A stretch of 64,000 bases of DNA from Okamejei kenojei (Eukaryota), in the NCBI GenBank assembly GCA_035221665.1, contig CM069174.1, forward strand, positions 9,858,001-9,922,000. Direction: 5' to 3'. The translations under genes and the position numbers were made by a program. Below, one piece after another: positions 2,858-59,950 of this stretch (the first letter of the stretch is position 1; the number at the start of each line of letters is the position of its first letter). The notes below the pieces were generated by a model, which ran no database searches, had not been told where the DNA came from, and saw only the letters and a list, made by a program, of their open reading frames with translations.

Positions 2858-3395
2858 CATGTGTAAGAAGGAACTGCAGATGCTGGTTTAAACCGAAGGT
2901 AGACACAAAAAGCTCAAGTAACTCAGCGGGACAGGCAGCATCTCTGGATAGAAGGGATGGGTGACGTTTTGGGTCGAGGCCCTTCTTCAGAATGGTTAGG
3001 GAGAAGGGAAACGAGAGATATAGACGGTGATGTAGGGAGATAAAGAACAATGAATAAAAGATATGCAAAAAAGTAACGATGATAAAGGAAACAGGCCATT
3101 GTTAGCTGTTTGCAGGGTGAAAATGAGAAGCTGGTGCGACTTGGGTGGGGGAGGGATAGAGAGAGACGGAATGCCGGGGCTACCTGAAGTGAGAGAAATC
3201 AATATTTCTACCACTGGGCTGTAGGCTGCCCAAGCGAAATATTTACTTGGACCATCTCCGACACCTCCCTCCCCTTTCTTGATCTCACCGTCTCCATCAC
3301 AGGAAATAGACTATTGACTGACGTCTATTACAAACCCACTGCTCCCACAACTATCTCGACGACACTTCTTCCCACCCTGCTTCCTGCAAAGACTC
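2858..3395. mobile_element. Penelope fragment with inversion: 3' end on the - strand joined to an RT fragment on the + strand
   Basis: 2858-3243 is the reverse complement of the 3' end seen at 50940-51268, plus the endonuclease tail IFRLGSLQPSGRNIDF. 3241-3395 encodes FTWTISDTSLPFLDLTVSITGNRLLTDVYYKPT...SSHPASCKDS on +. Confidence 0.85.
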
Positions 3396-3523
3396 TGGAG
3401 AAAACCCACGCAGTCACAGTGAGAATGCACAAACTCCATAAAGACAGCACCAGTAGTCAAGATCGAACCTGGGTCTCTGGCGCTTGCAAGGCAGCAACTC
3501 TACTGCTGCACCACGGTGCTGCC
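3395..3523 (-). mobile_element. V-SINE 5' half
   Basis: Reverse complement of the tRNA head and V-domain. Confidence 0.75.
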
Positions 3524-4047
3524 GATTACAGAAATTAGACCCTATAGTATGGTTTACATCACTGCTGTTTGACAAAAATATAGTTATCACGTGGAGGCAT
3601 GATAATAACCTTCTCAGCAGAAGTCGCAATTGCATGTCTGATATAATTTCTGTATCAGGTGGGCATAAGAACGATATAATTTACTATGCAATGCTTACCA
3701 CTCCCTTGATCCACACTCATTCCTGGGCTGGACAGCATATTATTGTCCCTGCCGATGCGTGACGCCTGCCCAGGGTGTCCAATAATTTCTGCAGTCATCT
3801 GGTCATTCTTATTTTGGACAATACTTTGTGTAAATTGAATGCTGTGTTGCTCTCTGCATTACATGAGTGGCCACACTTTAAAAATTGCTACTATTTTGAG
3901 ATGGATGGAACAGTTAAAGGTCTAAAATAATAGGTTCTATACTCATTAAGGAGAAAAGACTATTTATAAAATAGTCCAGGCTGCCTGTTAAAACCCCGGA
4001 CATAAACTATACTTTACTTGTAACATTCACTTATTTTCTGTCTCCAG

Positions 4048-4455
4048 GTCATAGAGTCACAGTGTCATACAGCATAGAAACAGGCCCTTCGACCCAATTT
4101 GCCCATGCTGACCAAGATGCTCCATCTACACTAGATCACCGGCCCATGTTTGGCCCATATTCCTCTAATCCTTTCCTATCTATGCCCCTGTGCAAGTGTC
4201 TTTTAAATGGTGCTATAGCACCTGCACCAACTACCTCCTCTTGCATATTCTACCATCCTCGGTGTGATTAAGTTGTCACCCAGGTTCCTATTAAATCTTT
4301 CCCCCCCCCCCCCCCCCCACCTTAAAACTCTGTTCTCTGGTTCTTGATTTCTCTACCCAGGAGGTTAAATACTCCATGCATTCATCCTATCTAATCCCCT
4401 CATGATTTTATACCAGTTTAAAAGATCACCCCTCATCCTCCTGCACTCCAAGAAG
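4048..4455 (-). mobile_element. Older CR1 3' end containing a poly(C) tract
   Basis: gtcatagagtc...gaaacaggcccttcg...ttgcccatgctgaccaagatg tail and decayed ORF2 end. Confidence 0.75.
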
Positions 4456-5699
4456 CAATTCCTAAACACCATCATAATGATATTAAAACATGCCTTTCCT
4501 ATTTAGCAATTTGTTGTGTCAAACCCATTACTGAACCTGTAGAAGATTACTACATGCTTTTGATTTAGAAGGTAGGGAGTGAAAATATTGTGTCGATGAA
4601 CTGATATTAATTGTAGCGATCGTAAAAGACCCATATACCTTGACAACTGTAAGAAAGCTTTGTCAGTCACCGGATCCTAATGCACGTCAGGTCTGATTCA
4701 CTCCGACCCCGTCATAAGAGGCACGTAGGCATTGCCTTTTTAAGTTGATGGTGTAGCGGCGCCAGCTGGCGCACGCAGGTATCGAACCCGGCGTTCGGAA
4801 TCTGCGGCCACGTGACTCGGGAGGGGCTGTTTTCACGCAGTTTCGCTTTTGCGCCACGGTTGTGTTGCTGACCATCATTGTGGCCAGACGTGTTTGCAGA
4901 GACCTGTAAGCCAGGGAGCTATTGTCTGAATAAATAAGTTCGCAAAACTTGGTTGTCGTCTTTGCATCCGCCAAAATGGAACGTTTAAAAGTCAACATAG
5001 GAGTTTCTAACAAAGATCTTCTTCTTCTTTCGTGTGGCGTGCACAGCCTAAAGTTGTTGGACAACTTGTTCTATTTGATCTTCCATTTGTGCACGTCGAG
5101 TTGATTGCATTAGTCGGAACGGGGTGGACCACGTGAAGGTTGCAATCTTCCACCCCTCCAACAAAGATAAATATAAAGAAATCTGCAATTGATAAAACTC
5201 ACAAGTAACTTTCAACTGCCCATGAAACATTGGAAAATATGAAAACAACTATAGATGCTGGAAATCTAAAATAAAAAACAAAAAATGCAAAAAACTCAAC
5301 AAATCAGGCAGCGTTCGTCTGACCTGTTGAGTGGTTCCAGCATTTTTTTTGTTTTTTATTTGAGATCTTGCATCCTTATCCCACCTGATGTTCTTCGCTC
5401 ATCAACAAAACGACATTATTAATGCTATTTGTGGGACTTGCTGTCTGACACCAACGGATATACTTGAAAGAAATTAAGTGAATGTACAGTTAGGTATGAA
5501 GCCAAGTTGAATCCAAATTAATCATTCTGTTGATCACAGATCTCACTCTTAACATTTCCCTCAATGTTGGCAGTTCCACTATCCAATGATGAATTCGCCG
5601 AATTCACAAATACATGTTATTTATTTTATCCACGTTATTTCTTTCATTGTTCTACATTTGGCTTAATAAAATGTCTTTGTGGATTTAAAAATACATTTT

Positions 5700-6381
5700 T
5701 AAAAACGTGACGGTTCAGCCTTCTGGGAAAAATGGGAAATGAAGCGCATTGGGGCGCTAGGACCCGGTGGAATCCCTGGAGTAGCTTTCCACCTGCTGCA
5801 ACAGTGGGAGACTCTGCAGCCTAGCTGTGTGCTGCTCGTTCTTTACATTTTAACAGTGAGTCGCGGCTGCCTCCCCCATCACTTTGCAAAATCACGTTCA
5901 GGGTTTTTTTTTTTTTTGGCGAGCCGCCCTTCCCCGACTCACTGAATGCAGAGCGGCGGCTCGGGTGAATTGTTCCTGACACGGCCCCAAGACCAGGACA
6001 GTCTGAAGTTTCTGCACTTCCTACACTTGCTGCTGTTCCTTCCTTCCGCTCGCTCTAAGGTACTTCAGCAACTAGCCTTGTCCTATTTTTGCAATCTCGT
6101 TTTGCAGTTATAGACAACGTTAAGGTGCCTTTCGATGCCCAATGGGCTCATTTGAGTTAATGGGACCGAATGCTTGATGCTTATTTGTTGTAAAACTTTT
6201 GACCGAGAGTAACGTGAAACGGAATTGAAACTGATGGGAGGAATCGCCTTGTGCCTGAATCAATATTTATTGACTGTGAAACTTTGCACATTTTATTTTA
6301 AGGAAGCAGAAATTTGGCATTTAAAGGTAAAATATCTCTGTGGTTTCCGCGACGGACTACAATTCATTCTTTTCGGTAAGT
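5700..6381 (+). promoter_or_regulatory. Candidate promoter and non-coding first exon of the GALNT6-like gene
   Basis: Non-repetitive and locally CpG-enriched. GC box gccgcccc near 5923, TTCTGGGAA (STAT-type) at 5721-5729, E-box CACCTG, AP-1-like gactca. Donor candidates aag|gtactt (6060), aag|gtaaaa (6327) and consensus tcg|gtaagt (6376). Confidence 0.5.
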
Positions 6382-8999
6382 GTTTTTTTTTAAACAGAAA
6401 GAAGTTTCCTGAGTGACATTTTCCGGAACTTTCTTAACATAACTGACTTTGACAAAAGGTTAGGGGTTTGAGGCTGCTGTCGATACACTTAGTTTGTTTC
6501 CTATGGTTTTATGTATGACTGCTCCATCTATGTGGATATTAAACCATCATTATACAATGGGAAGTGTATGCATGTTTGTCTGGTATTGGGTGTGTGGAAT
6601 TGAGGCTCGCAAAGGGTTAAGATGGCTGCTCCCTTTGAATAATTTAATGTCCAAAGTGTTTTGTTAAACTAGTTGCGATGATTTCGGAGAAGTAAAGTGG
6701 GGAGGAGGAAAGTTTTTTTTTAAAGAAAGAAAACATCACAATTTTGTGAGGGATAAATATCTCACAATTTGATGTAGAGAAGCTTTCAATTCAGCAGAGT
6801 TTGCTACAAATCCCTGGCTTCAGTTATTTTGGGGAGAAGGGGTGAGAGAAAGAACCAGGTTCCCCTAATAAATGGTGAAAGAGAGAATTGAAACCATTGA
6901 TGGATAAGTGTCACCGTCTCAAGTTCTGGGTTCCAAAATTCCCCAAATTTAAGAGAATGCATAGAATAGTACAGCACAGGAACGGAGTGATACATTTTAG
7001 TGTAGGTAAATATTTTTCCCCCTCTGATGGCTGAATTGATACACGTATTAGGTACTGTGGAACTGAGCCAGATGGAGCAAGGAGGTCTCTCTCAATCTCT
7101 CCAGCGTTGCCTATCTGCTGGAGTGAGCATCCTGGTGTTGGTAGAGGAGGGAGTGAAACTGTCCTCTGTATATCATGTGACTACTGCAAGAAAGTATCTT
7201 TTGTGCACATGAGGTGTGAACAGGATCAGGTGTGTTGAGTAAATGGCTTGTCAATACTCACTGTTTTGGCACACCTGAAAAATGCCACTTGGCTGAGATC
7301 CCAGAAAACAATCCGTCATTTTGTTTCCTGGAGTAAGAATTTTAATCAAATATATATAGTTATATCTGCTGTTAGGATAAAATTCAGATTTTAATATATC
7401 ACTACTCAACATGTCAAAGATGATCTGATGATCAATAGTGGCATAGGTTTGCACTAAGTAACATAACTTTCATTTAATGGATATACTGTGTTATCTGAAG
7501 TATACAATGTATTTCTGGGCATGTATGATTGAAATTTATGGTTGCAGTTCAAGGGAAACTATTTTAATGCAAGTGCTACATACAATGTGTTGAGACAAGG
7601 CAAAACTGGCAAATAATAACTTAAAATTAAAATCGATGGGTAATTTCTAAGAATGCATTTGTATATAGTGCTGAATTATGCAGAAAAAAATGTGGTGTCA
7701 GTTTTTGTTTCCGAAGCACCCTTGATTATTACAAATAAGAAAGTGGCATTTGTTAAAAGGAGTGTTGGCCAGGATAACTGCACAGCTTTTTAAAGTGTCT
7801 CAACTATCTGAACAAGAAGGCCAACCGTCATCTAATGCCTCCACTTGAAGGGTATCCTTGTGTGGTAGTACAGCCCGAACTTGGGTGTGTCAATCTAAAC
7901 CTTGTGGCGAAATCCGAAAGTGAACTTCAACCAATAGTCATCTAATCCAGAAGTTGTTATCATCTTAAATTAGTTGACGATTGGCTGTTTCTAACAACAA
8001 AGTATTGTGCAGTGTGGCCATGACTAATGTGTTGTAGTTACAATTAAGTACTTGCTGATGCCATACAAATCTTTGCCCAGCCAGTTATTATCTTGGGTAT
8101 GCAGAACAAGATCTGTGTCCTCCATGTGTGAAACATTGTGTTCATCAGCACTTTCCAACATGTTATTCACTGTAATCAGCTACACATTTGATCTTAAGAA
8201 TTTCTATTTGTCCTGGAGGGCCGATCTGGTTTCTCATCTTCTGTACCTTGCAAAGGAGGACAACGGCAAATGAAGTTTAAAAAGCATTGCGATCTAATCC
8301 TCAACTTGCTCATCATTCTGGTGGCACTTTGCAGAGCTACTAAAAAGTTACTTGTCACTTTAATTAAAAGCTAAAGATATTTTTGTGCATGGTTGACTGC
8401 TAGTCCACCATGACAATTAATCTTGCAAGGCAATTTAATGTGTGTGTACACATAACCCAATGTTATAATTAAATAATAATAGTGTTTAATTTGTTTTTGG
8501 TAAACCACACTATTCTTGTTTGAATATATGGCTGTGGCTGCAATTGGGGTTAGGAATTTTAATGCAGTTTCTCAAGGACTGAAACGCTCAAATTTGATGA
8601 GGTTTGGCAATAGATTTGAGTTTTGATGTGTTCGTATGTGTGGTCTGTAGCTGGTGAGTGGGCCTTGTGTGACCCCTGTTCTCATTAATGCAGGGTGGTC
8701 TGCTAAAGTATTGTTTGAGACTGTTTCCAGGCTACTGGTTGTGCTTGACTTGCCTTTAGGTACTGGATCAACAGAATGGAAAATGCTATAGATCCCAGAA
8801 CTTCACCTTGCCAAGCAGAAGAGTTGTTTAAAAAGTGGTCAGCATAAATATAGAGGGGCTACAAGGTAACTGCACTCAGAGGAGATCACCTAGCAAATAG
8901 AATACCAGAATTATTTGAGTAGGTTTGAAAACTGACAGAAATCAGTCAATATGAATCATGTAATTGTTGGTAATTGAAATGAGATTAGTAGAAGGACAG

Positions 9000-9285
9000 A
9001 GCATGGAAACGGTCTGTGCCAACCACCCAGTTTTCTACTAATGCTGCACCAACTCATTTTATTCTCCTTGCATTTCCATAAACTCTTCCCAGATTCTACC
9101 ACTCACATTCATGCTAGGGGGAAATTTACAGTGGCCAATGAACTACACACATTTTAGGAATATGGGAGGAAACTGGAGGCACCTGGGGGAAACCCACACA
9201 GTCATGGAAAAAGTACAAATTCCACACAGACAGCACCAGAGGTCAAGATTGAACCCAGGTCACTGGAGTTGAGGCAGTGGTTTTG
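9000..9285 (-). mobile_element. Old V-SINE
   Basis: gggaggaaactggaggcacctgggggaaacccacacagtca...ccacacagacagcacc...attgaacccagg. Confidence 0.7.
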
Positions 9286-11974: not shown

Positions 11975-12116
11975 AGATAGACACAAAAAGCTGGAGTAAC
12001 TCAGGCAGCATCTCTGGAGAGAAGGAATTGCTGCAGAAGGGTCTCGACCCGAAACGTCTCCCATTCCTTCTCTCCAGAGATGCTGCCTGAGTTACTCCAG
12101 CTGTTTGTGTCCATCT
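11975..12116. repeat. Fold-back Penelope-derived unit
   Basis: agatagacacaaaaagctggagtaactcaggcagcatctctggagagaaggaat ... attccttctctccagagatgctgcctgagttactccagctgtttgtgtccatct; a hammerhead remnant forms the loop. Confidence 0.85.
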
Positions 12117-15624: not shown

Positions 15625-15850
15625 GACACACAAGTCAGACAGAAAACACTGGAGTAACTCAGCGGGACAGGCAGCATATCCGGAGAGAAGGAATGGGTGA
15701 CGTTTTGGGTCGAGACCTTTCTTCAGACTGAGAGTCGGGGAAATTGGAGATATGGAAGGGTACAAAGAGAATGTAAGGTGTGAAAACGACAGATCAAAGC
15801 AGCCGATGATCAAGGAAAGAAAGAATGGTTCATTGTTGGCTGAAAGGAAA
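15625..15850 (-). mobile_element. Penelope 3'-end fragment with hammerhead core
   Basis: Reverse complement of the 51050-51260 terminal region. Confidence 0.75.
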
Positions 15851-16211
15851 TGTAGTAACACAAGCTTATGAATCCCATCCAATCCATTTTGCCGTAATGC
15901 AATAAAACTGCATAAAACTTCGAATGATGTGCTATCATATAAAATTGCTTTCAGTAAGGGTGAAGCAAGAGTTTAATGGATTGAAGAAATTGCACTGTGC
16001 TGACAAGTAGCCCTGAATACATTGATTGTTAAAGTTCCCAAAAACTTCTCCATAGCTCTCCTCCCCACCCCCGACATTTGACATATAGAACACATGTACC
16101 TTGGAACAAGGAGGCAGTAGCCTGGCGATATGCAACCTTTAAACATCCAGCTGGCAAATGACATAATTATCTTCTTGGACTGATGACAAATATTACACCA
16201 CTTGGACTGAT

Positions 16212-17654: not shown

Positions 17655-17957
17655 CTGGAAATTGGAGGAGCTGTACCTCGCATTCTGCTTGGGCAGTTTA
17701 TACCCCAGCGGCATGAACATTGACCTCCAATTTCCGGTAGCCCTTATTGTCTCCTCCCCTTCTCAGCTCTCCCTCAGCCCTCTCGCTCCTCCTCTTCCTT
17801 TCTTCTTCCCCACCCCCCCGCCTACATCAGTCTGAAGAAGCGATTCGGCCCGAAACATTGCCTATTTCCTTCGCTCCATAGATGCTGCCACACCCGCTGA
17901 GTTTCTCCAGCACTTTTATCTACTTCCGATTTTCCAGCATCTGCAGTTCCTTCTTAA
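17655..17957 (+). mobile_element. Penelope 3' fragment (endonuclease C-terminus, 3' end, hammerhead core)
   Basis: ELEELYLAFCLGSLYPSGMNID, then a C-rich tract, ctgaagaagcgattcggcccgaaac and the shared terminal sequence. Confidence 0.8.
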
Positions 17958-18189
17958 ACCTCTTTAATACTGCTATCTTACAGCCTGTGCTTCCTCTACC
18001 ATCGTTGCTGGCATACATTGCACAAAGTTTCTCTTCCTGAACTTGCAGGCTCCAAGGTTCCATCCTTTGCCATCTCCTATTCCCCTTTTGATCACGTTGC
18101 TTTCTCATTAATACGCTGATAATCCGAGAATTCAAAATGCCACGGCCACCCTTGGTTCCATGACTTGCTGAAATGCCTGCCTGAATGTT

Positions 18190-18415: not shown

Positions 18416-18799
18416 TGTGGTGTGGGTAAGACGGATGTGTTGAAAACTTGACGTTGGCATGGTCAAAGCCATCTCGTGCTGGATCACCAAGAGTTCTTCC
18501 CATCCCTGACGTTGGCTGGATCTAGGTTCAATACGAAGAAAGCTCAAAGATTTGTAGCTAGTCTGTCGCTGAGAGCGTCTCCTTTTTGCCTCATATTGTG
18601 GCCTCATTAGGTAATTTAGTTATTGATGCTCAGACTGGACACTGGTATATGTTCATCACAATTTGTTGTGTGATTGGAATCAGGAAATCTAATTTTCTTG
18701 TTGAGGCAAAAAACAGACTGCTGGAGGAACTCTGCAGGTCAGGCAGCATTTGTGGAGGGATAAGGACAGACAACATTTTGGATTGTAGCCCTTCTTCAG

Positions 18800-19645
18800 A
18801 CTCCCTACATCCACCCTGTCAAGCCCTTTTAGAATTATGCAAGCTTTCATGAGATCTCTCATTCATCTGAACTCCAGAGAACACAGACCTAGTCTACTTC
18901 ATCTCTCCTTGTGCTGTAAATGAGCCATTCCTGGAACCAGTCTAGTAAATATTTGATGCACTCTGGTGGCAATTACATCCTTTTTTGGGCAAGAAGATTA
19001 AAACTGTGCACAATACTCCAGTGTAATCTTGCCAAGGCCCTATACGATTGCAATAAGATCCCCTTATTCCTGTACTCCAAATCTTGTCATAAATGCTAAA
19101 ATACTATATCTCCTCTTAATTGTTTGCTGTATCTGTGTTCTGGCCTTCAGTGACTTGTTTACAAGCACCTTGGTCCTCCAATCCCTTTAAATGTCAACAC
19201 CTACCATTTAACAAATACTCTGCTTCTCTACAATGTCCACCAACAATGGACCTCCATTGGACAAACTGGTGTCTTTCTTTTTTCTGTATATTTTAACTGC
19301 CATGTTCACTCACTCAACTTGTCCATGTTGTCTTGAAGACATTTTGCATCCTAACCATTGCCACACCCAGTTTGGTGCCATCCGCCAACTTAAAAATACA
19401 CCACTTCATCCCCTCGTCGACTTAAGAAGGATCCATTTATTCCCGCTCTTTGGTTTCTCTGTTATAACCAGTTCTCAATCCATGTTAGTATGTTATCCCT
19501 AATTCCATGTGCTTGTGGGCCAACTTTTCTGGGACCTAAACAAACACCTTTTGAAAAACGAAGCGCACTACATCTTCCAGTTTTCCCCACATCTATTTTA
19601 CCAAACGCATGCTCAAGGAACTCCAGAATATTAGTCAAACATGTT
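18800..19645 (-). mobile_element. Old CR1 RT fragment
   Basis: ORF 19462-19683 CLTNILEFLE...HGIRDNILTWIENWL. Confidence 0.7.
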
Positions 19646-20233
19646 ACTTCTGTGGTCATTGGAAATGTTAACACTATTTGCATGCACGGAGTACATTTAC
19701 TTGTGCGAGCATAGATCTTTTCTATTAAAATTTGTGCAACTGGCTAAAATAGTGTTGCCTCAGCGACACCTGTGTCTCTTCAGTGATTTATATTGCACAG
19801 CACTGGTGTAGTAAGTGTCTGCTGAGCAGAAGACTAACATTGCTCTATTATAACAGAGGTTTACTTAAAGCACTTGGGGACATGTTTGTTCTGCTGAGTT
19901 TAATATTCCTCTGGCTCAGAGAATTCCCAGTGCTAACATGCCTTCTACTTGATCAAGTGATTATTCATGCCGTATACTACAATGAGCAGAAATGTCATGT
20001 ATATCAACTGCATGCATGTCAGCTACCTTTTGTCTTTAAATGATGAGTACATAGGAAAGCCTGCACTTTATTTCTCAATTAAATTATATATTTTCTTTGT
20101 TTTTGTTGAACTGTGGTTCTTTATGTATTGAAAGGAAGCATTGTCTATGTTTCCATCTATTTAGAAATCAAGAGATCATTTGGATGATCAATGAGGTCAG
20201 ATTTAGCACCATTTGAATTGCTGTTATTCCAGA

Positions 20234-20659
20234 AGATAGACACAGAATGCTGGAGTAACTCGGTTGCAGGCAGCATCTCTGGAGAGAAGGAATGGATGAC
20301 GTTTCGGGTCGAGACCCTTCTTCAAACTATTTGCATGCACGAAGTACATTTACTTGTGCGAGTATAAATCTTTTCTATAAAGGTTCGTGCAACTGACTAA
20401 AATAGTTTTGCCTCGGGTATACCTGTGTCTCTTCAGTGATTTATTTGCACAGCACTGGTGTAGTAAGTGTCTCCTGAGCAGTTTTTAACGTTGCCCTATT
20501 ATAACAGAGGTTTACTTAAAGCACTTGGGAAGAAGGGTCTCGACCCGAAATGTCACCCATTCCTTCTCTCCAGAGATGCTGCCTGTCCTGCAGAGATACT
20601 CCAGCATTTTGTCTACCTTTTGGTGTAAACCAGCATCTGCGCTTCCTTCCTACACAGTA
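20234..20659. mobile_element. Fold-back Penelope-derived unit with a 204-bp captured loop and 10-bp flanking direct repeat
   Basis: Inverted arms 20234-20325 and 20529-20656; ttattccaga at 20224-20233 and 20660-20669. Confidence 0.85.
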
Positions 20660-40202: not shown

Positions 40203-40412
40203 TGTGTAGGAAGGAACTGCAGATGCTGGTTTAAACTGAAGATAGACACAAAAAGCTGGAGTAACTTAGCGGGACGCAGCATCTCTGGAGAGAAGGAATG
40301 GGTGACATTTCTGGTACTTCCAACATATTTACATTCTCAACACAAAATGTCACCTTCGCATTCCCAGAGATGCTGCCCATCCCGCTGAGTTACTTCAGCT
40401 TTTTGTGTCTAT
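40203..40412. mobile_element. Fold-back Penelope-derived unit with a 23-nt foreign loop
   Basis: Inverted arms 40203-40314 and 40338-40412. Confidence 0.8.
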
Positions 40413-40454
40413 TGTTGCTCCAATCTTCTCCCCTTCTCTGAACTTGGAGAGTTA

Positions 40455-41948: not shown

Positions 41949-42450
41949 GTGAGTGTCTTGTGTATTTGGTGATAATATTGAATTTTCATATTGAATATTT
42001 TTTTATTCCATATCTTAAGTGAACAATAGAATGGTACACCCAAGAATTAATAACCTGTAGAAATGTTAAAGCACAGAAGTAAATCATTTGGCCCATTGAG
42101 TTCATGCTGGCTTCTTGAAGAACAACCTATTCTTAACTCATTCCTCTGCCCCTTTGCATAGCCCAGTAAAGTATTTTCCTTAAATGTCTATCTTTTTTTT
42201 GTTGAAAGTACTGATTTGCTCTGATCCCATCATCATTTTAAGGCAACTGGTCCAATTCATAACCATTCATCAGTAGAAACATTCTTGCATCCCTCGCAGT
42301 CTTTGTGAACGGGAATAACTTTCTTCTTGAACAGCAGAATGGTGCACACATTGTTGTGCAATCTGAAGTAGTGCAAGAAAAGTGTAAGTACTCGAGAGTA
42401 TGAGGCAGCACTTCTGGGAAGGGGTGTGAAAGAGGTGATTGGTTCAGGAG

Positions 42451-42631
42451 ATGGACACAAAATGCTGGAGTAACTTAGTGGTACAGGCTGATTATTCAGT
42501 CTGAAGAAGGGTCTTGACCCAAAACGTCACCCATTCCTTCTCTCCAGAGATGCTGCCTGTCCCTCCGAGTTACTCCAGCATTTTGTGTCTGTCTTCGGTT
42601 TAAACCAGCATCTGCAGTTCCTTCCTATACA
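42451..42631. mobile_element. Partial fold-back hammerhead unit with 15-bp TSD
   Basis: tgattggttcaggag (42436-42450) / tgattggctcaggag (42632-42646). Confidence 0.85.
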
Positions 42632-43309
42632 TGATTGGCTCAGGAGTCTGATAGCTGTGGGGAAGAAGCTGTTCTGAAGTCTGTATGTCTGACCTTGCAA
42701 ACAACTGTATCTTCTCCCAGAAGCTAAAAGAGAAAGGAATGACCAGGGTGACAGATATTATAGTCATAGAGTGATACAGTGTGGAAACGGGCTCTTTGGC
42801 CCAACTTGCCCACACCGGCACCGGTATCCTTGATAATACTCCCAGCCTTCCTGCGCAATGCACTGTGAAGATAGACTGGATGGAAGGAAGCGGCTAGCCT
42901 GTGATGGACTCGGCTGTGTTCACCACACTCTGCAGGTTGAGGCCATCCAGAGGAGAGTAGTTGCCACATTGGGCTGAGATGCATCCCGTCAAAATACTTT
43001 CTATAATGCATTTGTAGAAATCGTAGAGAATCCTTATGAATTTGATGAAACCTCAGATGCACTATATAAAAATAAAGAGCGGGGGGGCACCAGCGTTGAG
43101 GGTCACAGTAGAGGAAATGTTGTGACCAAATTGAACTGATTCGGGTCTGCTGCTCATGAAGTCCAGAAGCCAGCTGCAGATGATGATCCAAGGCATAGGT
43201 CCAGAAGTTTGGAGATGAGCTTATTTAGTATTGAAGGCTGAGCTGCTGCAGTCAAAGAACAACATCCTAACATAGGTGATCTTGTAATCAAGGTGATCCA
43301 GAGCTGAAT

Positions 43310-43936: not shown

Positions 43937-45397
43937 AATGCAGTGCAAGGGAGATGGTGTCTTCCATTAGACCTATTTATCCTGTACACAAATTGCAAGG
44001 GATGCAGATTGTCCATGAGACCGGCTCTGATGCACACCATTATCTTTTAGTTAATTTCTAATGGCCAACCCCAAGTTGTCCTATGGGCATTAGAACCTAC
44101 CATGCCAATATTGCCAAATTGTAGAACAAAATCCCACCAGTGTGATCAGCGACTGAAGAATCCAGAGGTGAAAGAACACTCTGCTACCAACTGTACCAGC
44201 AGGGCAGCACTGATTCTCTCAGTCAGACAAGGCGCGCTTGTATATCAACATACATGTGAGAAGGCTTCACATGCACAGGAAGCCACACTTTATTGGCCAG
44301 CTTCGTGGAGTCAATGCTCTTTTATTTCATCCTTTGGCATAAGTTCCACTTCCCTGGCCAACAAGGGCGAGGTATTTTTGAACTTTTTCTTTAAAACAAT
44401 TGTGCATGAAGCATGGGTATTTTGGCAAAGTTTTGTGAGTGAGGTCAGGTAGCGTGACACAAGTTTCATTGAACCATAGCTCAGGAAGAGACCAATGCCA
44501 ATGAGCAGAAGGGTGTGGGGGGACTAATGGATGTCAAGGCAGAGGAAAAGTCCATAAATATACCGAATATCTTGCACTGTGCATTATATGGAATATCCAC
44601 TATTAGCACTTTAAAACGGTCGCTGGGATAACCACAAAATGTGACCTCTGCTGTGGGTCTGTGGTTGAAGCCTGCTTGACTCCTAACCTCTGTGGGTTTT
44701 CCATGGATTTTAAATAAATGTTTGGAGTATTGACACTTGTTCCCACCCATGTTTAACAGGCTATAATTATCAGTATCATTACTGTACCAAAGAAGTGCAG
44801 CTGTGATGTTGCTAGGGTGAAATTGCACCGTGGGACCATCTTTTTATTTGTATTAAATATTTTTTAATTATATCTTCTCAATAACCTATTCTTCATCTTT
44901 GGTTATGAGACAACTGTCTTTATTATAATTGTATGTAATCCAAAGAGGATGTCTTCCCATAATAGTTGATTTTTAACGATTCCAAATGAATATTAGAACC
45001 AAAGGCACTAATGCAGAGAATTGTTTCTGAACAGAAAGTGTGAGTAAAATATTGGCCTGTTCAAGACCATCTTAGTCACCAGTCTTGAAATAAGAAGAGT
45101 GAGTGGTCTTTGAGGAGGAATACCATGATTTCAATAGAATAGGTGGGAAGATGAAAGCTAAGTTGGTGGGATAATGTAGATGCACCCAAAAAGTGGCCTA
45201 TCCATGTTCTCCAGAGATGTTGCCTGAGCCGCTGAGTTTCCATAGCACTTTGTGTATTTTTATTGGTGGGATAATGGATTGTGAGATGTAAAAGAGGTTG
45301 GGGGTCATGAAACCATCATCAAACAACTTCAGCAGCTGGTGAAGTCGAATGCATCTCTCTCTCCCGTTTGCTCTCTCTCTCGCTCTTTTTCTTCCTC

Positions 45398-45430: not shown

Positions 45431-45874
45431 AACAGGTGACCACTGCAGCCTTTCAAAGGGCGTCCAATCCATTATTTCATGGATTGTAACGAGATGGGTT
45501 AATCATTGTCCGCAGGATTGCTGGGGTGTCGAGGTACCAGCAGTGAGACTCGTGATACTGAGGAACCACCTATCATGCTGATGGTCTGCCCTCTGATGTG
45601 GTAGTATCTATCAAACAAATTGGTGACGCTAACTATCAAAAATATCTCTCCTTGCCTCTTTTAAGATTGTTATGATAGACCATTCGATTTGATTTTGATT
45701 TGATTTTCTATGTAGTATACGTGTGACACCTTGACACCTTTTTTGTCAACACTAAATCTGCAGTGTCCAATTGAGGGTCCTGGATTTTAACTTGGTGGGA
45801 GAAGTGCTTGCAACTCTGTTCTCATCATGCACAACTTGTTCATTAGTGAAGGGACAAGATGGATTGATCATACA

Positions 45875-45978
45875 TTCAATACGGTCTGAAGAAGGATTTC
45901 GGCCCTGAACGTTGCCTATCTCCCTTGCTCCAAAGATGCTGCTGCACCTGCTGAGTTTCTCCAGCATTTTGTGTACCC
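45875..45978 (+). mobile_element. ~100-bp Penelope-derived hammerhead unit with TSD
   Basis: ttgatcataca at 45864-45874 and 45979-45989. Confidence 0.8.
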
Positions 45979-47789
45979 TTGATCATACAATCGTTCAGTG
46001 GGAATAGGCAGTGAAGATTACTGCAAAGAGTTTTCAGTTTTTGATAATGTTTTTTTTTTTGGGGGAAAAAAACCTTTTGAGGTGATTGTAAGAAGTTGCA
46101 GCTCGCGCGACTTTATATGCCTCGGTTTGAATTCCGGTGCTTCTACTTCCAATGGTGTTATGTAGTTGCTGTGAAGGTTATGCTACTGTCTGCAGCGTGC
46201 TTGCCATCCCTGATTCATTATCGACCTGATCACACTGTAAATGGGTCAAAATTACAGCGCAAATACAGCGTCACATGATCCAAGAGCGCAAAGCCCAATA
46301 ATGCCATGAACGGCAAAAATGCAGCAAATCTAGGTCTATATTCCTTTCACTACAATAACATGACGCCAAAAGTTTTTTTTCTTTCTTGACTGCAGTCAGT
46401 TCTGTGCGAGTTCTTGTCTGCTGGTCACAGCAGCTCGTGAATGACTATAAAATATTACTTTTTGAATGTCAAGTCTCACATGCAAGTGTCAGGAGGCCAA
46501 TTTTGAAATTGAGCAGGGTTTAAAGAACCAGTTAGCCCAGTGGTTCATCGTGTGTGATTTACCAAATTTACAGGTGATATCAAACATTGGTCTTGTATTT
46601 TAGGGTTGTTTTGATGGGTCGTGTGATTTGGATAATGTTTTGATCCCCTCAGTGATGATCAGCATATCTATCTGCCAATACACAACTGTCTGAATCAAAC
46701 ACTGGGCAGAATCCTCTGTGAAGCTTTGAGAAGCCAACTCTGAAATGAACTCTACGGATGCTAATAGGCAACCTTTCTCCAGGGCATGGTTTGGGAATAC
46801 CTGGATGATGCAGTAATGGGTGAAGAAATCTACAGTTAAGGGTGATAAGAGGGACCACTGAGTTTTACCTGACCATGGATGACAATGCATGCTAAACTGG
46901 AACAGGGTACTCTCTGAAAACATATTACCACTTTTAAAAAAAACAAGCCCAGATCAGATGGGTTTATTTTTGTTGATGTTTTTTATATAAATGCATTTAA
47001 GCTGGTCTCTGATCATGCAATAAATCTGTAACGGGTGAGAAAGCCGGTAAGCAGCTTGTTAGAATTACAGTGAAAGCAGTTATATTTGGATAAATGTTAA
47101 GGGTAGAGGTTGCCCTGATTCAGGTTAACTGAAGCACTGATACAGGATGAATATCATTATTTTCATGATCGTATCCTTTAGAAAACATTGAGGCCCACGT
47201 GTAACCAAACCCAACAGAGGAAACTGGAAAGCTGAATGTTTTCACAAAGCGTGCCCTGTTGTGACTGAAAGCAGTTTCTCTCTAGTTGCATACAAGGGAC
47301 AATCAATGGTCCTTTTCAAATGCAAAGGGATTTTTATCTGGGACTTCAACGTAGCATCACCAGTTTCGGGAGACTGCTGTGGAGTTGAGTGGAGGCTGTC
47401 TTGAGATGATAATGTTCTCGTCAGTTGTTTTTGTGTTCAGAAATCCCATATGGTTTTCCCCACTATTTCTATCCAAGTGACTGCTGCTCAGTCTGACACT
47501 TTGCTCTGGTCATGACCGTCGAAGAACACCTGAGCAAATGGCATTCCCTGTATAAATCCACATGTTGCTTCAGGAATTAGATTTTGGAAAGCATTAAGTT
47601 CCCACTTGCCTTTTTGTTGCCACCACACTACTTATTTAGACATGGCAGGATGTGTAGACTCCTGGAAATGTGCCCACCTTAACTTCATGCCACTTGTGAT
47701 AGTGGATACTGGGATTATATTTAAAAACGGTTCACAACTGGCATCGTGTGTCTAAATTTGAAAAGTCAATGGCATCGCTAGCAGCTGCA

Positions 47790-48389: not shown

Positions 48390-49345
48390 TTAGAACATAG
48401 AACAGTACAGCACAAGAACAAGCCCTTTGGCCTACCAAGTTTGTGCCAAACAGGACCTCAGTCTGAAGAAGGGTTTTGCCCCGAAATGTTGCCTTTCCTT
48501 CGCTCCATAGATGTTGCCTCACCCGCTGAGTTTCTCCAGCACTTTTGTCTACCACCAAATAGGCCTATTTAAACGAATTCCTTCTGCCTACGTGTGAACT
48601 ATATCTCTCCACTACCTGCATATTCATGTGCCTATCTAAGGCAAACACTGCACATATCCTTTAAAGTTTCTCCCCCACCTCACGTTTAAGGTATGCTCTG
48701 AAATATTTGACATTTCCACCAGGGGGGAAGGGGGGTTCTGACTGTCTTCCTTAGCTATGCCTCTCATAATTTTATGTTTCTATCAGGTTCTCCCTCTGCT
48801 GCCTCTGCTCTGGGGAAAACAATCCAAGTTTGTCCAATGTCTCCCCACAGCCTGTTCCCTCGAATCCAGGCTGCATCTTGATAAACCTCTTCTGCACCCT
48901 CTCCTTTGTGTAATGAGACCGGAACTGCATAAAACACTCCAAATGTAGCCCAACTCAAGTTTTATAAAGCTGCAACATGACTTCTCGACGTTTATGTTCC
49001 GTGCCTTGACCGATGAATGCAAACATGCCATTTGCCTTCCTGACCACTGCTACTTTCAGGGAGCTATGGACTTGAACTCCAGGATCCCTCTATGCATCGA
49101 TGCTGTTGAGGATCCTGCCATTAACTGGATAATTTATCCTTGCATTTGACCTCCCACAGAGCAGCATCTCACACTTGCCTGGATTCAACTAACTCCATTT
49201 GCCGTTTCCCTGCCCATATCTGTAACTAATCTACGTCCTGGTGTATCCTTTCACAGCTGCCTTTATGCTCCACACCTTCATACATTTTAGTCTTCTTCAA
49301 GCTTATTAACCAACCCAACTACATTTTCTTCCAAGTAATTTATCC
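48390..49345 (-). mobile_element. Older CR1 3' part
   Basis: (tagaaca)n tail, decayed ORF2 (LGQTWIVFPRAEAAEG frame), RT remnants to ~49340. Confidence 0.7.
48455..48555 (+). mobile_element. ~100-bp Penelope-derived hammerhead unit with TSD, inside a CR1 tail
   Basis: ccaaacagg (48446-48454) / ccaaatagg (48556-48564). Confidence 0.75.
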
Positions 49346-49599: not shown

Positions 49600-49717
49600 G
49601 ACTCCCGCGTTTGCTGGTGGCCTCTTTGCGATCTCCAAAGCTTACTTTGAACTGATTGGAACATACGACAACCAGATGGAGATATGGGGAGGAGAGAATG
49701 TGGAAATGTCATTCAGG
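49600..49717 (+). CDS. GALNT6: GALNT6-like coding exon 5 (Gal/GalNAc-T motif); absent from the ORF track
   Basis: Acceptor tattttcag|, donor |gtaaat; 118 nt. [39 protein letters not shown]. Confidence 0.96.
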
Positions 49718-50092
49718 GTAAATGCAAATGCTTATATTTATAATGGTGCTCCTTGGTTGTGTGTTGGATTTTTAATTTGAACGTGATGTTGTGGTCTAAA
49801 ATGTAAAGGCACAGCCTATTTTCCATGAGAAACTGCCCAGGACTGTATTCAATTCGCTGATCATCATCACGACACCAACTGAACATATCACTTGGTCTCC
49901 GTTCTGCTGGGCCAATGAGGGCAAAACAAATCTTTTAGTGTTTTCCCTTTCTGATCGAGTGTCTGATTATTTGGAAAGACCAAGATCAGGCTCCATACCC
50001 TCCACATGTAAAGCCCAAGGTCACGATGAAGAATTGATGAGATGCCAGTCCCAAAGGGCACTCGCAAAGGTACCCCGCTTGTTCTCGGTGGA

Positions 50093-51268
50093 CCAGGGCC
50101 CCATCCCCGACCTCTACCTCCGTTACATCGACGACTGCTTTGGTGTCACCTCCTGCACCCACACACAACTGACTGACTTCATTCATTTCACCACCAACTT
50201 CCATCCGGCACTCAAATACACTTGGACCATTTCCGACACTTCCCTACCATTCCTTGACCTCACCATCTCTATTGCAGGTGATACACTCCTGACCGACATC
50301 CACTACAAACCAACTGACTCCCACAGCTACCTGGACTACTCTTCCTCCCACCCTGCTTCCTGTAAGGACTCCATCCCCTATTCCCAATTCCTCTGTCTAC
50401 GCCGCATCTGCTCCCAGGATGAGGTGTTCCACACCAGGTCATCACAAATGGCCTCATTCTTCAGAGAACGGGGATTCCCCTCCCCCACTATTGATGAGGC
50501 TCGCACCAGGGTCTCCTCCATACCCCGCAACACTGCCCTCTCTCCCCATTCCCCCACTCGCAAACAGGACAGAGTCCCCCTGGTCCTCACCTTTCACCCC
50601 ACCAGCCGGCAAATAAAACACATAGTCCTCCGCCAGTTTCGCCACCTCCAACGTGACCCCTCCACCCGCCACATCTTCCCATCTCCCCCCCTGTCTGCCT
50701 TCCGCAAAGACCGCTCCCTCCGCAACTCCCTTGTCAATTCTTCCCTCCCCTCCCGCTCTACCCCTTCCCCAGGCACTTTCCCTTGCAACCGCAAGAAATG
50801 CAACACTTGTCCCTTCACCTCCCGCCTCCACTGCTTTCAGGGACCCAAGCAGTCCTTCCAGGTCCGACAGAGGTTCACCTGCACCTCCTCCAACCTCATC
50901 TATTGCATCCACTGCTCCAGATTTTCTCAATTCTGTTAACCCTTGCTGTCTCCTCCCCTTACCACCTCTCCCTCAGCCCTCGGGCCCTGGCATTCCCTCT
51001 ATCTCTATCTCCCTCCCCCACCCTAGTCGCACTAGCTTCTCATTTTCACACCACAAACAGCGTACAATGGCTTGTTCCCTTTATCATCGATACTTTTTTG
51101 CATATCTTTCGTTCATTGTTCTTTATCTCTCCACATCATCGTCTATATCTCTCGTTTCCCTGATCCCTGACCAGTCTGAAGAAGGGTCTCGACCCGAAAC
51201 GTCGCCTATCTCCTTCGCTCCTTAGATGCTGCTGCACCCGCTGAATTTCTCCAGCTTTTTGTGTTACC
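50093..51268 (+). mobile_element. Penelope-like element, 5'-truncated, with internal deletion of most of the GIY-YIG endonuclease
   Basis: ORF 49938-50939 contains YLRYIDDCFG (RT motif C), HYKPTDSHSYLDYSSSHP, SIPYSQF..RRICS, VPLVLTFHP, CNRKKCNTC and FTCTSSNLIYCIHCSR, then jumps near 50920 to a C-rich 3' end with a hammerhead core. The first ~50 codons of the ORF are read-through flank. Confidence 0.9.
51174..51205 (+). ncRNA. Minimal type I hammerhead ribozyme motif in the Penelope 3' end (best-preserved copy)
   Basis: CTGAAGA (51176-51182), extra A, stem II GGGTC-TC-GACCC, GAAA (51196-51199), palindromic stem III AC/GT, GTC cleavage triplet (51201-51203). Stem I is only ~2 bp. Confidence 0.7.
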
Positions 51269-52149
51269 CCGTGACAAATTTGTGCCTTCAGGGCAAGAAC
51301 TTTGGGTTTTTGTCTTATCTAATATTTTGGATCTTTTTGTATTTGAGAAAAACATTTCCAATGCACTGGTAAACGATAATTACAAAGTAATGTTGATTGT
51401 TGCCATTTGAGCATTTGATGGAAATTGATTGGCCTATTCCTACTGAATTATGGAGAGACTAGTGTTTAAATACTGGAGGAAGCCCAAACTCTGTTTTGTT
51501 TATGCCTCCTTGAATTTTTTTTTTGATCGAATAGGTTGGATTTGCTTCCAGAACGCTAAACTCAAAAAGTTGGCTTATAAATAGCCTTCATACCCATGAC
51601 CAAAGCTCTTCTCAAAAGATGATTTTTCAAAATTGAGAGGAAGCCTATTCTCTGTCATCAATGGCTCCTAAACGTTTATGAATGAATGCCCCAAAATACT
51701 TGCTGTTATGAACTACTCCTGTAAAGGAGTTGCGGCTGTCCCAAAGGTTCCTGGGAACTACAAGCAGCCCTTTGGAGAACGGTTCGTTTGTATGTGAATT
51801 TTCTGTTTAAATTGCCTTTATTATTAAAGTGACATGATCGCTCTGTAATCGGTTGTACACCCAGATTGGCAATCATATTCTTTATAAATTCAAAAGATTA
51901 AAAATGGTTATGTTACAATGCTCTTCTGAAGTTAGTCGTGTTATAATGAAAATTCCTGCCATTCTTGGGCTGCGATTGGCACTGGAAAATGTGGACAAAA
52001 CTGGCATTGACTTTTTTACTGCTTTTATAAAAGGTGCATTTCTAATGCAGCCTTGAATATATTTGTAGGAGTTCAAGTGGAGTAGTTGCCATGATTTCAT
52101 CATCCATAGTGAATGCAGAAAAAATAGAGACAAAGATTGACTGGTGTCT

Positions 52150-54798: not shown

Positions 54799-54999
54799 GT
54801 CTGGCAATGCGGTGGGCAGTTGGAGATCATTCCCTGTTCAGTGGTGGGCCATGTGTTCCGCACCAAGAGCCCGCACAGCTTCCCAAAAGGTGTGCAGGTA
54901 ATTGCCCGCAACCAGGTGCGTCTGGCTGAGGTCTGGATGGATCGCTACAAGGAGCTGTTTTACAGGAGGAACCAGCAGGCAGAAACAATGGCCCGTGAG
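54799..54999 (+). CDS. GALNT6: GALNT6-like coding exon 6
   Basis: Acceptor ttctttag|, donor |gtgagt; 201 nt. [67 protein letters not shown]. Confidence 0.96.
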
Positions 55000-56278: not shown

Positions 56279-57360
56279 TGATAATCAATATTTTAAATAT
56301 ATACAGATACGTGACTTTATGAATAAATATATACATAATTTCAAACTATATTTTTAGACCCTTTAGAAGAAGCAATGAATATTAAGGCCGATTCACAAAA
56401 ACTAATATCATATTTTTATAATAGTATATTAAATAGAGAATTACCCTCAACAGAGGCACTAAGAGAAGATTGGGAACATGATGATAAAGATTCCGAAAGG
56501 TAGATGGGAAAAGTATCTGATGAACACACATAATTGTTCCGTTAATGCAAGACATATTACATAGACTATATTATTCAAAAACGAGGTTGAATAAATTCTA
56601 CTCAAACGTCTCTCCTAGATGCGATAAATGTTTGTTTCAAAATGCCAATATAACACATTCATTTGTAGGATGTATAAAGTTGAATAAATTTTGGAGCGAC
56701 ATATTTGATATATTTACAAAGCTCTTCAAGTCAAGAATAGAACCAAATACGGAATGGATTATATTTGGAATAATAGTAGGAGATATCAAGTTAAACAAAG
56801 ACCAAAAAGTATTCTTTAATTATGGGTTAATAATTGGAAAGAAATTGATACTTTGGAAAAATTCAGCTATACCAACTATTAAAATGTGGATTAGTAATAT
56901 GACGGACATAGCTCACCTTGAAGAAATGAGACTCCGCCTAATAGATAAATATGACCAATTCTTAAGGAGTTGGTCCCCTTTCATCGACTTTATGGAATCA
57001 TGTGATGCAGCAGTACCGTAAAGATTACTGATTTCAGGTCAGGTCGTGGGTAGAATTACATCTCCGAACAAAGATTTGAAAATGTTCTTTTTTAAGGGTC
57101 TTTTTCTCCTATTTCTACTTTCTACTTTTTCTTTTCTTATATACACACTTCACATTTTTCTATTTTCTACTATCTATTTTTCCTCTTCTCCCTATTTCTT
57201 GTCTTTTTTTAAATTTCCTTTTCAAAAACATAAAACTAGAGGTTGTACGTAGAATATATTACGTTATGACATAGTTGGCACCTAAAATTAGGTGCCACTG
57301 TATTGTTTTGCACTGTATTAACTTCTAATAAAATAAACAAACAAAAAAAACAACAAAAAA
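56279..57360 (+). mobile_element. 5'-truncated L1/Tx1-type LINE with poly(A) tail and TSD
   Basis: ORF 56545-57021 has the ORF2 C-terminal zinc knuckle (LHRLYY...CDKC...H...C...FW). AATAAA and A-rich tail at 57327-57360. TSD gaacccgca(t/a)gaggctgaa at 56260-56278 and 57361-57379. Confidence 0.88.
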
Positions 57361-57703: not shown

Positions 57704-57805
57704 ATTAAAAACAAGGGAACTGGAAGCTGCTTGGATGCTGGGGAAAACAATCATGGTGGAAAACCTCTGATAATGTACCCATGTCATGGAATGGGAGGCA
57801 ATCAG
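57704..57805 (+). CDS. GALNT6: GALNT6-like coding exon 8 (ricin-type lectin alpha repeat)
   Basis: Acceptor ttttgcag|, donor |gtacca; 102 nt. [34 protein letters not shown] with the CLD motif. Confidence 0.95.
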
Positions 57806-57879
57806 GTACCAGTCAATGATCATTTGAAAAAGCAAGCAGTTCTAAAACTGCGCCTGTCTGTGTTCCTTGTCGGGATCAG

Positions 57880-58755
57880 TTTCAGTTTAGTTTATTGTCA
57901 CGTGTACAGTGAGAAGCTTTTGTTGCATACTATGCAGTCAGCAGAAGGATAATACATGATTACAATCGAGCCACTTATAGTGTATAGATACATGATAATG
58001 GAATAACGTATAGTGCAAGGTAGAGCCAGCAAAGTCCGATCAATGATAGTCCGAGGGTCACCAAAGAGGCAGATAGTAGTTCAGCACTGCTCTCTAGTTG
58101 TGGTAGGATGGTTCAGACTGATAACAGCTGGGAAGAAACTGTCCCTGAATCTGGAGGTGTGCGTTTTCATACGTCTATACCTTTTGCCTGACGGGAGAGG
58201 GGAGATGAGAGAGTGGCCAGGGTGAGACTCATCCTTTATTATGCTGCTGGCCTTGCCGAGGCAGCGTGAGGTGTAAATGGTGTCAATAGAAGGAAGGTTG
58301 GTTTGTGTGATGGTCTGAGCTGCGTCCACAATTCACTGCAATTTCTTGCGTCTTGGATGAAGCTGTTCCCAAACCAAACTGTGATGCATCCTGATAAAAT
58401 GCTTTCTATGGTGCATCTGTAAAAGCTAGTGAGTTGGTGAGAACTTCCTAAGCCTTCTAAGGAAGTAAAGATGTTGGTGTGCTTCTTGGTCGTTACTTTA
58501 ATATGGGTCGTCCAGAAGAGGTTGTTGGTGATATTGACTCTGAGGAAATCTATTTTGGCACCGTCAATGCAAACTGGGGTATGTGCACCGCTTCACTTCC
58601 TGAAGTCTATCACTATTTCCTTTGTCTTGCTCACATTGAGAGAAAGGTTGTTGTCTTGACACCAGGACACTAGGTTCTCGATCTCCTTCCTGTACTCTGT
58701 CTCGTCATTATTTGATATCCGGCCCACAATGGTGGTGTCGTCTGTGAATTTGAAA
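57880..58755 (-). mobile_element. Rex1/Babar-like LINE 3' part
   Basis: Minus strand FKFTDDTTIVGRISNNDETEYRKEIENLVSWCQDNNLSLNVSKTKEIVIDFRK and KASSIIKDESHPGHSLISPLPSGKRYR...FRDSFFP. Confidence 0.8.
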
Positions 58756-59524
58756 ATCACGTGCTACTAACTGAATTGTCATGCCAAACTAATCAACTTT
58801 CCAGACCATATCAAATGTATGAGAGGGTGGGTGAATTTGAAGTTGCAACCCAAGGATCATGTAAATAGATGAACAAATGGCAGATTATCATTGTACGTGG
58901 CAGGAATGTTAGGATGCTCGTGTTCCAACTATGTCTGGAGTTAGCTATGATTGACATTTGGAGATCTGGGGGTTTTAGTAGATGAGATGATCAAGATTTT
59001 AACACAACAATTAACAAAGTAACTAGATGCTTAACCATATGGCCAGGGTAGTGGAATGCAAGTTGTAGGGAGCTGTGGTCCGACATTGAGTGCTGTGTAC
59101 TATTACGGTCACTAAGACATTTGGCAAAGACACTCAAGCCCAGGAGGTGAAGCAGAGAAGGGATTTGTTGTTGATTCTTTAAAAACTTGAGTTTGAAAGA
59201 TAAAGAGAGGAAACAAGTTGTCATAATATTGGGGGAGGAAAAAATGTGCTGATTGGTATGACTCATCAATATAAGATGGTGAGTAAATGTGCCTCTTAGA
59301 CCAAACAAGTCTTGGATTTGCACCTCAATCAATTGGGAAAATTGCACACAATTTCCACTTTTCACTGATTACTTCTATAGGAATGGAATGTGCAATGGTT
59401 TTGTATGGGGGAAAGTTTCTCCATTTATCCACTCACCAGGTGGTCAAATGATCCACTAATGCTAGCTCTTTAGACTCACAAGTAACCAGAGGTTAATTGG
59501 GTAAGATTATACCACTCATTATAA

Positions 59525-59950
59525 TGGAGATGCTGGAATCTTGAGCAAAACACAGTGCTGCAGGAACTCAGTGGGTCAAACAGCATCTGTGGAAGGAATG
59601 GACATGCAACGTTTCGGATCGGGACACACTAAAGTCGCCTGCCCTTCCACACTAAAGTCGCCTGTCCATTCCCTCCATAGATGCACTTTGTGTTTTGGCC
59701 ACAAATAATAATATCTACTTCCAGTTAAACGGATCCTTTAAACAAAGGTTTATCAAGGTTCACATAACTATTATCGAACAGTGGTTGGTGCCTATGGAAG
59801 CCTAATTCTGCTCCAGTGCTATGCATTCAGGAGAAATAAGAGAAGTAAAGTGAAGTGAATATAGGGTACACAAAAAGCTGGAGAAACTCAGCGGGTGCAG
59901 CAGCATCTAAGGAGCGAAGGAGATAGGCGACGTTTCGGGTCGAGACCCTT
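59525..59950 (-). repeat. Two further Penelope-derived units (older fold-back 59525-59697; younger single arm 59864-59950)
   Basis: Shared terminal motif gctggagaaactcagcggg...gcagcatct; truncated hammerhead cores. Confidence 0.7.

Follow-up and report, generated by a model that had tools for sequence, protein, structure and literature searches.

Short hammerhead-bearing repeats of Okamejei kenojei as probable terminal copies of a Neptune-type Penelope-like element

What are the short repeats, each built around a minimal hammerhead ribozyme core, that recur through 64,000 nucleotides of the Okamejei kenojei genome (assembly GCA_035221665.1, contig CM069174.1, positions 9,858,001 to 9,922,000 of the forward strand)? 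An earlier note on this stretch (hereafter the window, with positions counted from its first letter) had described about 20 such units as a very high-copy ribozyme SINE (short interspersed element) or retrozyme-like family mobilised by a Penelope element. We consider it probable that these units arose by retrotransposition as short copies of one part of a Neptune-type Penelope-like element (PLE), its terminal module, which comprises the end of the pseudo-long terminal repeat (pLTR), the minimal hammerhead and an optional tail. They were likely produced when the element's own enzyme began reverse transcription within that module and continued to a nearby RNA 5′ end, where it ran off.

The parent is best seen in the longest copy of the window. 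The motif had been placed at the 3′ end of a Penelope reverse transcriptase (RT) element at 50093–51268, and this holds: the element (50093–51269, + strand) is a 5′-truncated, internally deleted PLE. The segment 50082–50924 encodes the C-terminal half of a PLE RT including the thumb, a C-x4-CxxC linker (residues 236–243 of the translation) and the start of the GIY-YIG region, and is broken by a deletion near 50922. The 3′ pLTR (50940–51269) carries the sole fully intact hammerhead of the window, with the core at 51176 and the cleavage position after 51203. The translation matches 171 longer proteins, many annotated as RVT_1 and some as GIY-YIG, while a direct Pfam scan of the RT fragment returned no family. 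The best named matches, which are in keeping with an elasmobranch host, are from sharks, namely Chiloscyllium (62–65%) and Stegostoma (61%); the Stegostoma homologue (P0002, 61% identity over 280 amino acids) continues through the pLTR to a KGLRPKR peptide that resembles the translation of the motif. RT and GIY-YIG homology make the parent an endonuclease-containing (EN+) PLE, and it is judged to be of the Neptune type by the CX2-5CxxC linker between RT and endonuclease (EN) in the protein sequence; Nematis likewise carries a linker of this kind (PMC8557442).

The link to the PLE, also drawn by the earlier note, is borne out by three copies in which the module is continuous with the end of the PLE open reading frame (ORF). 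Besides the copy at 51176, these are 2861–3395 (− strand), in which ORF end, pLTR, hammerhead 2990 (G12A) and tail are joined to an inverted RT fragment at 3245–3395 (+), and a member of the second subfamily at 17661–17958 (+), with ORF end, pLTR, hammerhead 17832, tail and a 14-bp target-site duplication (TSD) at 17644/17959. Hence both young subfamilies have ORF-linked members in the window, and every subfamily contains long members, with pLTR or ORF sequence, as well as short ones.

The pLTR with its hammerhead lies 3′ of the ORF in the window copies, and the layout is the same in relatives of the element (80 loci, ∼36–52% protein identity). In two of these relatives the motif lies across the start of the ORF (1,049 codons in L040 and 1,139 in L046), as it does in PAc (Poseidon of Anolis carolinensis), so that the module would serve both as mRNA leader and as 3′ repeat. 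Both loci, L040 (1–620, 3840–4122) and L046 (310–3729), are apparently full-length; in L040 the pLTRs are in direct orientation, a TATA-like box precedes the motif by 78 nt, and the first ATG falls within the hammerhead core. A conserved coding frame through the motif was also considered, as one frame is open in copy 2990, and was rejected because the shared block is preceded by one additional base in the second subfamily, and the old subfamily has a stop.

Copies of the module are numerous. The motif is present at all 20 sites listed by the earlier note (whose minus-strand coordinates are the low end of each motif), the most decayed being that at 38391 (nhmmer E 0.048). Searched with a profile of 19 of its copies, the window yielded 39 matches at E≤1, versus none in the reversed window used as a control, and fragments are thus more numerous than had been listed. 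As a count of units, however, the 20 motifs amount to 17 insertions by manual grouping, since 20298/20529, 37678/37707 and 38391/38545 each form a pair of inverted arms; among these three pairs only 20298/20529 is proven to be a single event, by its shared TSD. The 39 profile matches likewise group by hand into ∼27 insertion events, ∼12 of them with two head-to-head arms, and the module totals 2,936 bp, or 4.6% of the window. In four public runs (X1 and X15 from organism A, X6 from organism B, X12 from organism E), contigs matching 2800–3450 at 80% likeness numbered 184,307, 17,330, 176,307 and 148,940, showing that the family is very abundant in three organisms. The claim of a high copy number is supported (20 motifs in 64 kb; 17,330–184,307 contigs per run), and by extrapolation there would be 10^5–10^6 copies per genome. 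The summed contig depth of the 3′ module is ∼10 times that of the upstream pLTR and ∼100 times that of an RT fragment, which is a rough ratio only, depth not being copy number. Exact-pattern scans for the motif found none in viral, prokaryote-genome or metagenome contigs, and a protein scan of viral contigs found no relative.

The units have two preferred 3′ ends and one preferred 5′ end. With positions counted from C3 of the hammerhead, 23 of 35 aligned arms end at +83 to +97 and 9 at +113 to +131. The same two positions recur in the runs as top loose ends, at 2859/2860 (∼+131; four of four runs) and at 2900 (∼+91; three of four). These two classes, ∼40 nt apart, correspond to having or lacking the optional 30–40 bp tail known in PLEs (PMC8557442), which in PAc is the stretch between two internal start sites of reverse transcription (PMC11167929). 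In the predicted folds of several copies the tail (2860–2940 and in other tailed copies) pairs with a block at ∼+52 to +60, a candidate RT-start structure.

For the 5′ end, 30 of the 35 arms were kept, those at 41553, 53954, 15441, 5318 and 5316 being too weakly aligned; five arms were called long by hand, and one start was read as −4 rather than the script's −11 because of a shared palindrome. Eleven of the 30 arms start between +81 and +3. Among the 19 that reach +2, 14 end at −8 to +2, compared with 1.1 expected from the downstream rate (P 2e-11, for an interval chosen post hoc), and no arm starts between −9 and −60. Consistent with this, a loose end at 2991 (−1), whose consensus begins with the complement of TCAG, is among the top ones in all four runs, while the cleavage position 2962/2963 is absent from the loose ends listed (the best six in each of four runs; 3372 more exist). 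Since the starts lie ∼30 nt upstream of the cleavage site, the copies keep a whole, uncleaved motif at their 5′ end. The template was thus uncleaved, and ribozyme cutting is not what defines the unit.

Insertion by retrotransposition with TSDs is supported by a comparison of 28 boundary sets (one boundary, 17661, was shifted after the first pass) with random and cross-paired controls. A score of at least 9 was reached by 6 of the 28 sets; among the controls it was reached by 1 of 600 that were random and 2 of 732 that were cross-paired. The six TSDs are 17644/17959 (14 bp), 20224/20660 (10 bp), 34910/35017 (18 bp, decayed), 42436/42632 (15 bp), 45163/45263 (14 bp) and 45864/45979 (11 bp). Of five units previously credited with TSDs, those at 20234, 34928, 42451 and 45875 pass, and that at 48455 does not (score 6, p ∼0.12). 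At 20224 and 42436 the TSD flanks both arms of a composite, which means that the two-arm structure arose in one event. The insertion at 20224–20669 consists of an inverted arm (20232–20328), 197 bp of captured host DNA (20330–20526) and a tailed forward arm (20529–20655), and that at 42436–42646 of a short inverted arm (42447–42488) and a tailed forward arm (42498–42630). The captured 197 bp are 89% identical, in the same orientation, to a local donor at 19677–19875 (+), with 1–3 nt of microhomology at the joints. In another inverted pair (40206–40415, without the first core box), the ∼23-nt spacer at 40315–40338 is an inverted copy of 39574–39598 (22 of 25 positions; the next best in the window has 17). 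Both donors lie less than 1 kb upstream of the insertions, and no convincing local donor was found for six other spacers or flanks. These captures are compatible with template jumping to nascent host RNA as well as with templated DNA repair. The donor 39574–39598 lies 720 bp upstream of its spacer, directly behind the 3′ end of another unit. Inverted joints of 2859/2860 to 2900/2901, that is, between the two preferred 3′ ends, occur in all four runs, which suggests insertion at the ends of existing elements.

By analogy with PAc, the PLE protein would cut both target strands, cDNA synthesis would be primed at one of two internal sites on the RNA, and copying from both cut ends would yield one-arm or two-arm inserts. 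The cDNA would then run off a nearby RNA 5′ end at the transcription start. Most cDNA would derive from the leader of the element's mRNA, with long copies arising only from read-through RNA.

The ribozyme itself is a minimal type I hammerhead of the PLE kind, as had been recognised, with the core, an extra nucleotide after A9, a G10.1–C11.1 pair and a loopless palindromic helix III. Stem II is better read as 4 bp with a 4-nt loop, following one extra A. Hammerhead models had been put forward as a check, and an Rfam search of the window gave no hammerhead family among its 12 matches at E≤10; the miRNA matches are inverted repeats that fall below the gathering score. Stem I is indeed short, 0–3 bp in the 18 copies scored. 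All 11 core positions are kept in 5 of these 18 copies, and G12 is changed in 8, in 6 of them to A, as expected from CpG decay. Copy 51176 alone combines an intact core with stems II and III, and its stem I has 2 bp. For 51150–51270 the predicted fold differs from the active one and does not outscore shuffles (z 0.68). More generally, predicted folds pair the core with a downstream pyrimidine run rather than forming an active ribozyme, that of 42495–42632 being mildly better than shuffles (z −1.84). The doubt already raised about activity is supported, and the prediction is that most copies in the genome are catalytically dead.

Covariation in stems I and II, proposed earlier as a test of the motif, is found at the level of the clade. 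Core-matching motifs occur 28 times in 26 of the 80 relative loci. Stem I has 3.4 pairs versus 0.96 in shuffles (0 of 5000 as high; 16 flank types) and stem II 2.8 of 3 pairs versus 1.94 (0 of 5000; 15 types), where the shuffles ignore relatedness, and A-U, U-A and C-G are found at the same stem positions. In the young subfamilies of the window, stem changes are one-sided only. In active master elements the motif is probably kept by selection. According to published work, minimal motifs show weak cleavage as dimers (PMC4209133; PMC6765202), and that of PAc cleaves only with protein and is dispensable for insertion in vitro (PMC11167929).

Do the short units nevertheless form a family of their own? 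The view of a separate ribozyme SINE or retrozyme family is not supported: subfamilies mix long and short members, the window has no tandem array and no tRNA gene, and the units start upstream of the cleavage site. A weakly supported tree of 20 copies intersperses the two length classes; the labels require five changes, and 500 of 500 shuffles do as well. That the short units could be a self-propagating, non-autonomous, PLE-dependent SINE-like family, transcribed and recopied in trans, seems improbable to us. It would accord with the sharpness of both ends, with the excess depth of the 3′ module over the upstream pLTR and the RT fragment, and with the proposal of non-autonomous PLE derivatives (bioRxiv 10.64898/2026.07.22.740005), and a unit starting at an initiator would retain any downstream promoter elements. 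Yet the tree has no short-only clade, the short copy 59956 is 97% identical to ORF-linked 51176, the short copies share no upstream sequence, ARAGORN found no tRNA gene in the window, no tRNA, 5S or 7SL family was among the 12 Rfam matches, and run-off from a master mRNA would give the same ends. Far less credible still is a retrozyme, in which tandem units self-cleave, circularise and are reverse transcribed by rolling circle. A retrozyme monomer would start just after the cleavage triplet, which the units do not, and their motif is minimal rather than canonical. The hammerhead is of type I and the TSDs exceed 4 bp, as this explanation would have it, and the four runs contain 13, 0, 12 and 12 contigs with a head-to-tail joint of 2991 to 2860 (a 132-bp unit). 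However, that joint is at the unit ends and not at the cleavage site, and it is as rare as the tail-to-tail inverted joints there; insertion at an existing tail would explain both kinds alike.

What sets the 5′ stop is a narrower question, on which we lean slightly towards a transcription start at the initiator-like CAGT. The initiator pattern YYANWYY, with its A at −3 or −4 (the modal start), is present in all five long window copies, a TATA-like 7-mer lies at −32 in two of the five (one upstream type), and such a 7-mer lies at −40 to −30 in 5 of 17 relative families (1.6 in shuffles; 19 of 2000 reach that number). Were the stop instead set by a 3′ splice site, or by a protein blocking at the pyrimidine tract and AG, the units would still be PLE by-products; we hold this to be unlikely, though less so than an independent family. 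A pyrimidine-rich stretch precedes the motif in all five long copies (0.71–0.87; 2% of background windows reach 0.77), four of them have AG just before it, GT donor-like sites overlap the ORF stop at ∼3183 and ∼17737, and an intron of D. virilis Penelope terminates at helix I (PMC4209133). Against this, no upstream exon is common to the short copies, several of which retain the AG, none of the 15 joints listed (608 more exist) skips 2992–3183, and AG precedes the motif in none of 16 relative flank types. The idea that such a site is shared across the clade was rejected, none being seen in the relatives.

A number of points weigh against the preferred account. No full-length element or 5′ pLTR of the window family was seen, and for that reason the leader position had to be taken from relatives. 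The interval for the TATA-like box was picked post hoc, three of the five families that have it there seem to be related to one another, and the box is missing in three of the five long window copies. The initiator A is at −3 in only 3 of 17 relatives, and two initiator letters belong to the conserved ribozyme core itself. In D. virilis, Penelope transcription does not start at the ribozyme but 46 nt ahead of an intron of 75 nt, the end of which lies at helix I (PMC2377424, PMC4209133). The run data are contigs, which carry no RNA start, strand or cleavage signal; the loose ends and joints are a listed subset (3372 and 608 more exist), and the peak at 2991 is confounded by a reference mismatch at 2992 and by subfamilies diverging upstream. 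In addition, 22 of the 28 boundary sets are without a significant TSD, and the tree, with 87 columns and 1 of 17 branches starred, cannot exclude short-only lineages. A more far-reaching picture would have the elasmobranch Neptune element begin transcription at the 5′ edge of the hammerhead, and internal priming on the leader stamp out units of 90–130 bp at 10^5–10^6 per genome. Units that hold both initiator and RT-start structure would then propagate themselves as an RNA polymerase II-transcribed, PLE-dependent class resembling SINEs, with no need for ribozyme cleavage and able to copy adjacent host DNA or nascent RNA into the insertion. We offer this picture as a speculation that is unlikely to hold as a whole.

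The remaining copies in the window vary in age and form. A copy at 15632–15860 (−), without tail, carries hammerhead 15726 (G12A) and ∼130 nt of pyrimidine-rich upstream sequence that we read as pLTR, its 5′ boundary being approximate. Single short copies are found at 18708–18802 (−; older, within another repeat, start at −3), 27983–28112 (−; tailed, start at −2), 34910–35034 (−; tailless, with the decayed 18-bp TSD), 39473–39568 (+; G12A, start at −1), 45163–45276 (+; start at +16, exact 14-bp TSD), 45864–45989 (+; exact 11-bp TSD), 48446–48563 (+; the weak TSD of score 6) and 59864–59952 (−; start at +6, 97–98% identical to the 3′ end of the 50093–51269 element). An old, decayed one at 41463–41553 (−) was, like that at 45163, absent from the earlier list. 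Head-to-head inverted pairs comprise 11975–12116, with hammerhead 12031 (A6C) on the + arm, and 37609–37799, in which two hammerheads are joined at a shared CAG-N-CTG near-palindrome. Older inverted pairs lie at 36529–36707, 59525–59684 and 38238–38636; in the last, the left arm is broken at ∼38302–38380 and the right arm has, as read by eye, a stem I of 5 bp. The interrupting sequence (38302–38380) is a different repeat, resembling the 3′ end of a long interspersed element (LINE). A fragmentary inverted pair at 555–691 consists of pieces of the 3′ end and tail, and at 35150–35211 a very decayed minus-strand motif adjoins an inverted piece of upstream pLTR.

The surrounding gene, on the + strand, encodes a polypeptide N-acetylgalactosaminyltransferase, which we take to be of the GALNT3/GALNT6 type, with an exon at 31637–32140, which matches PDB 6s22 (E 2e-51), and probable exons at ∼49600–49720 and ∼54830–54990. 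A 149-bp near-perfect inverted repeat at 25592–25740, unrelated to the PLE module, is probably a miniature inverted-repeat transposable element and gave a false Rfam miRNA match. A 165-codon open frame at 56524–57021 has a weak zf-RVT match (E 0.009) and is a LINE 3′ fragment.

Dispersed PLE hammerheads and the anatomy of PLE insertions are already published, and the class is not new. Our literature search found no account of this elasmobranch family or of PLE 5′ ends clustering at the hammerhead; Repbase, Dfam, non-open papers and supplements were outside that search, and a prior description is possible. As a natural record of PLE insertion the family is very large, and in it both 3′ ends and the 5′ end are fixed, arms are paired and local DNA has been captured; for the internal-priming result obtained with PAc it supplies a counterpart in vivo from a different PLE clade. 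It argues against ribozyme cleavage defining the inserted RNA. With existing genomes and cap analysis of gene expression (CAGE) data, it also allows the start of PLE transcripts and the purpose of the hammerhead to be put to the test. The module should be annotated as PLE, and not as a SINE or as thousands of active ribozymes.

EN+ PLE insertions described previously (PMC8557442, PMC3846280) share with those of the window a pLTR after the ORF, strong 5′ truncation, an adjacent inverted copy, palindromic junctions, the optional 30–40 bp tail, TSDs round composites and unrelated DNA captured between pLTRs, the last described in a rotifer (PMC3846280). They differ in that most copies here are 90–130 bp with a sharp 5′ end at the ribozyme, that donors of two captured spacers are found within 1 kb, and that TSDs are 10–18 bp, compared with 8–10 bp in the rotifer examples. 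The minimal hammerheads of metazoan PLEs (Cervera and de la Peña 2014, PMC4209133) have the same type I core, extra nucleotide between A9 and G10.1, G10.1–C11.1 pair and loopless palindromic helix III. Most of them are likewise dispersed singles, probably from truncated PLEs, with some close opposite-strand pairs. The young subfamilies of the window have a stem I of 2 bp, as in D. virilis, versus 4–5 bp in the schistosome set (PMC4209133). The top vertebrate counts given in the available text of that paper, which names no cartilaginous fish, are ∼4,000–9,000 per genome, compared with 20 motifs in 64 kb here. The metazoan non-LTR retrozymes (PMC7229834; bioRxiv 10.64898/2026.07.22.740005) are similarly short, non-coding and pLTR-related, with a type I hammerhead. 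However, they consist of tandem repeats holding two or more complete motifs and are cut to units at the cleavage site, typically giving circles, whereas the units here are single or inverted and retain an uncleaved 5′ motif. PAc (PMC11167929) likewise has a hammerhead at the junction of pLTR and ORF start, two internal RT starts that bound the tail, an uncleaved RNA template and, here by analogy, cutting and extension of both strands. Unlike in PAc, no conserved start codon or frame was found across the subfamilies of the window, and whereas PAc belongs to the Penelope/Poseidon clade, the window element has the Cys linker of Neptune and Nematis.

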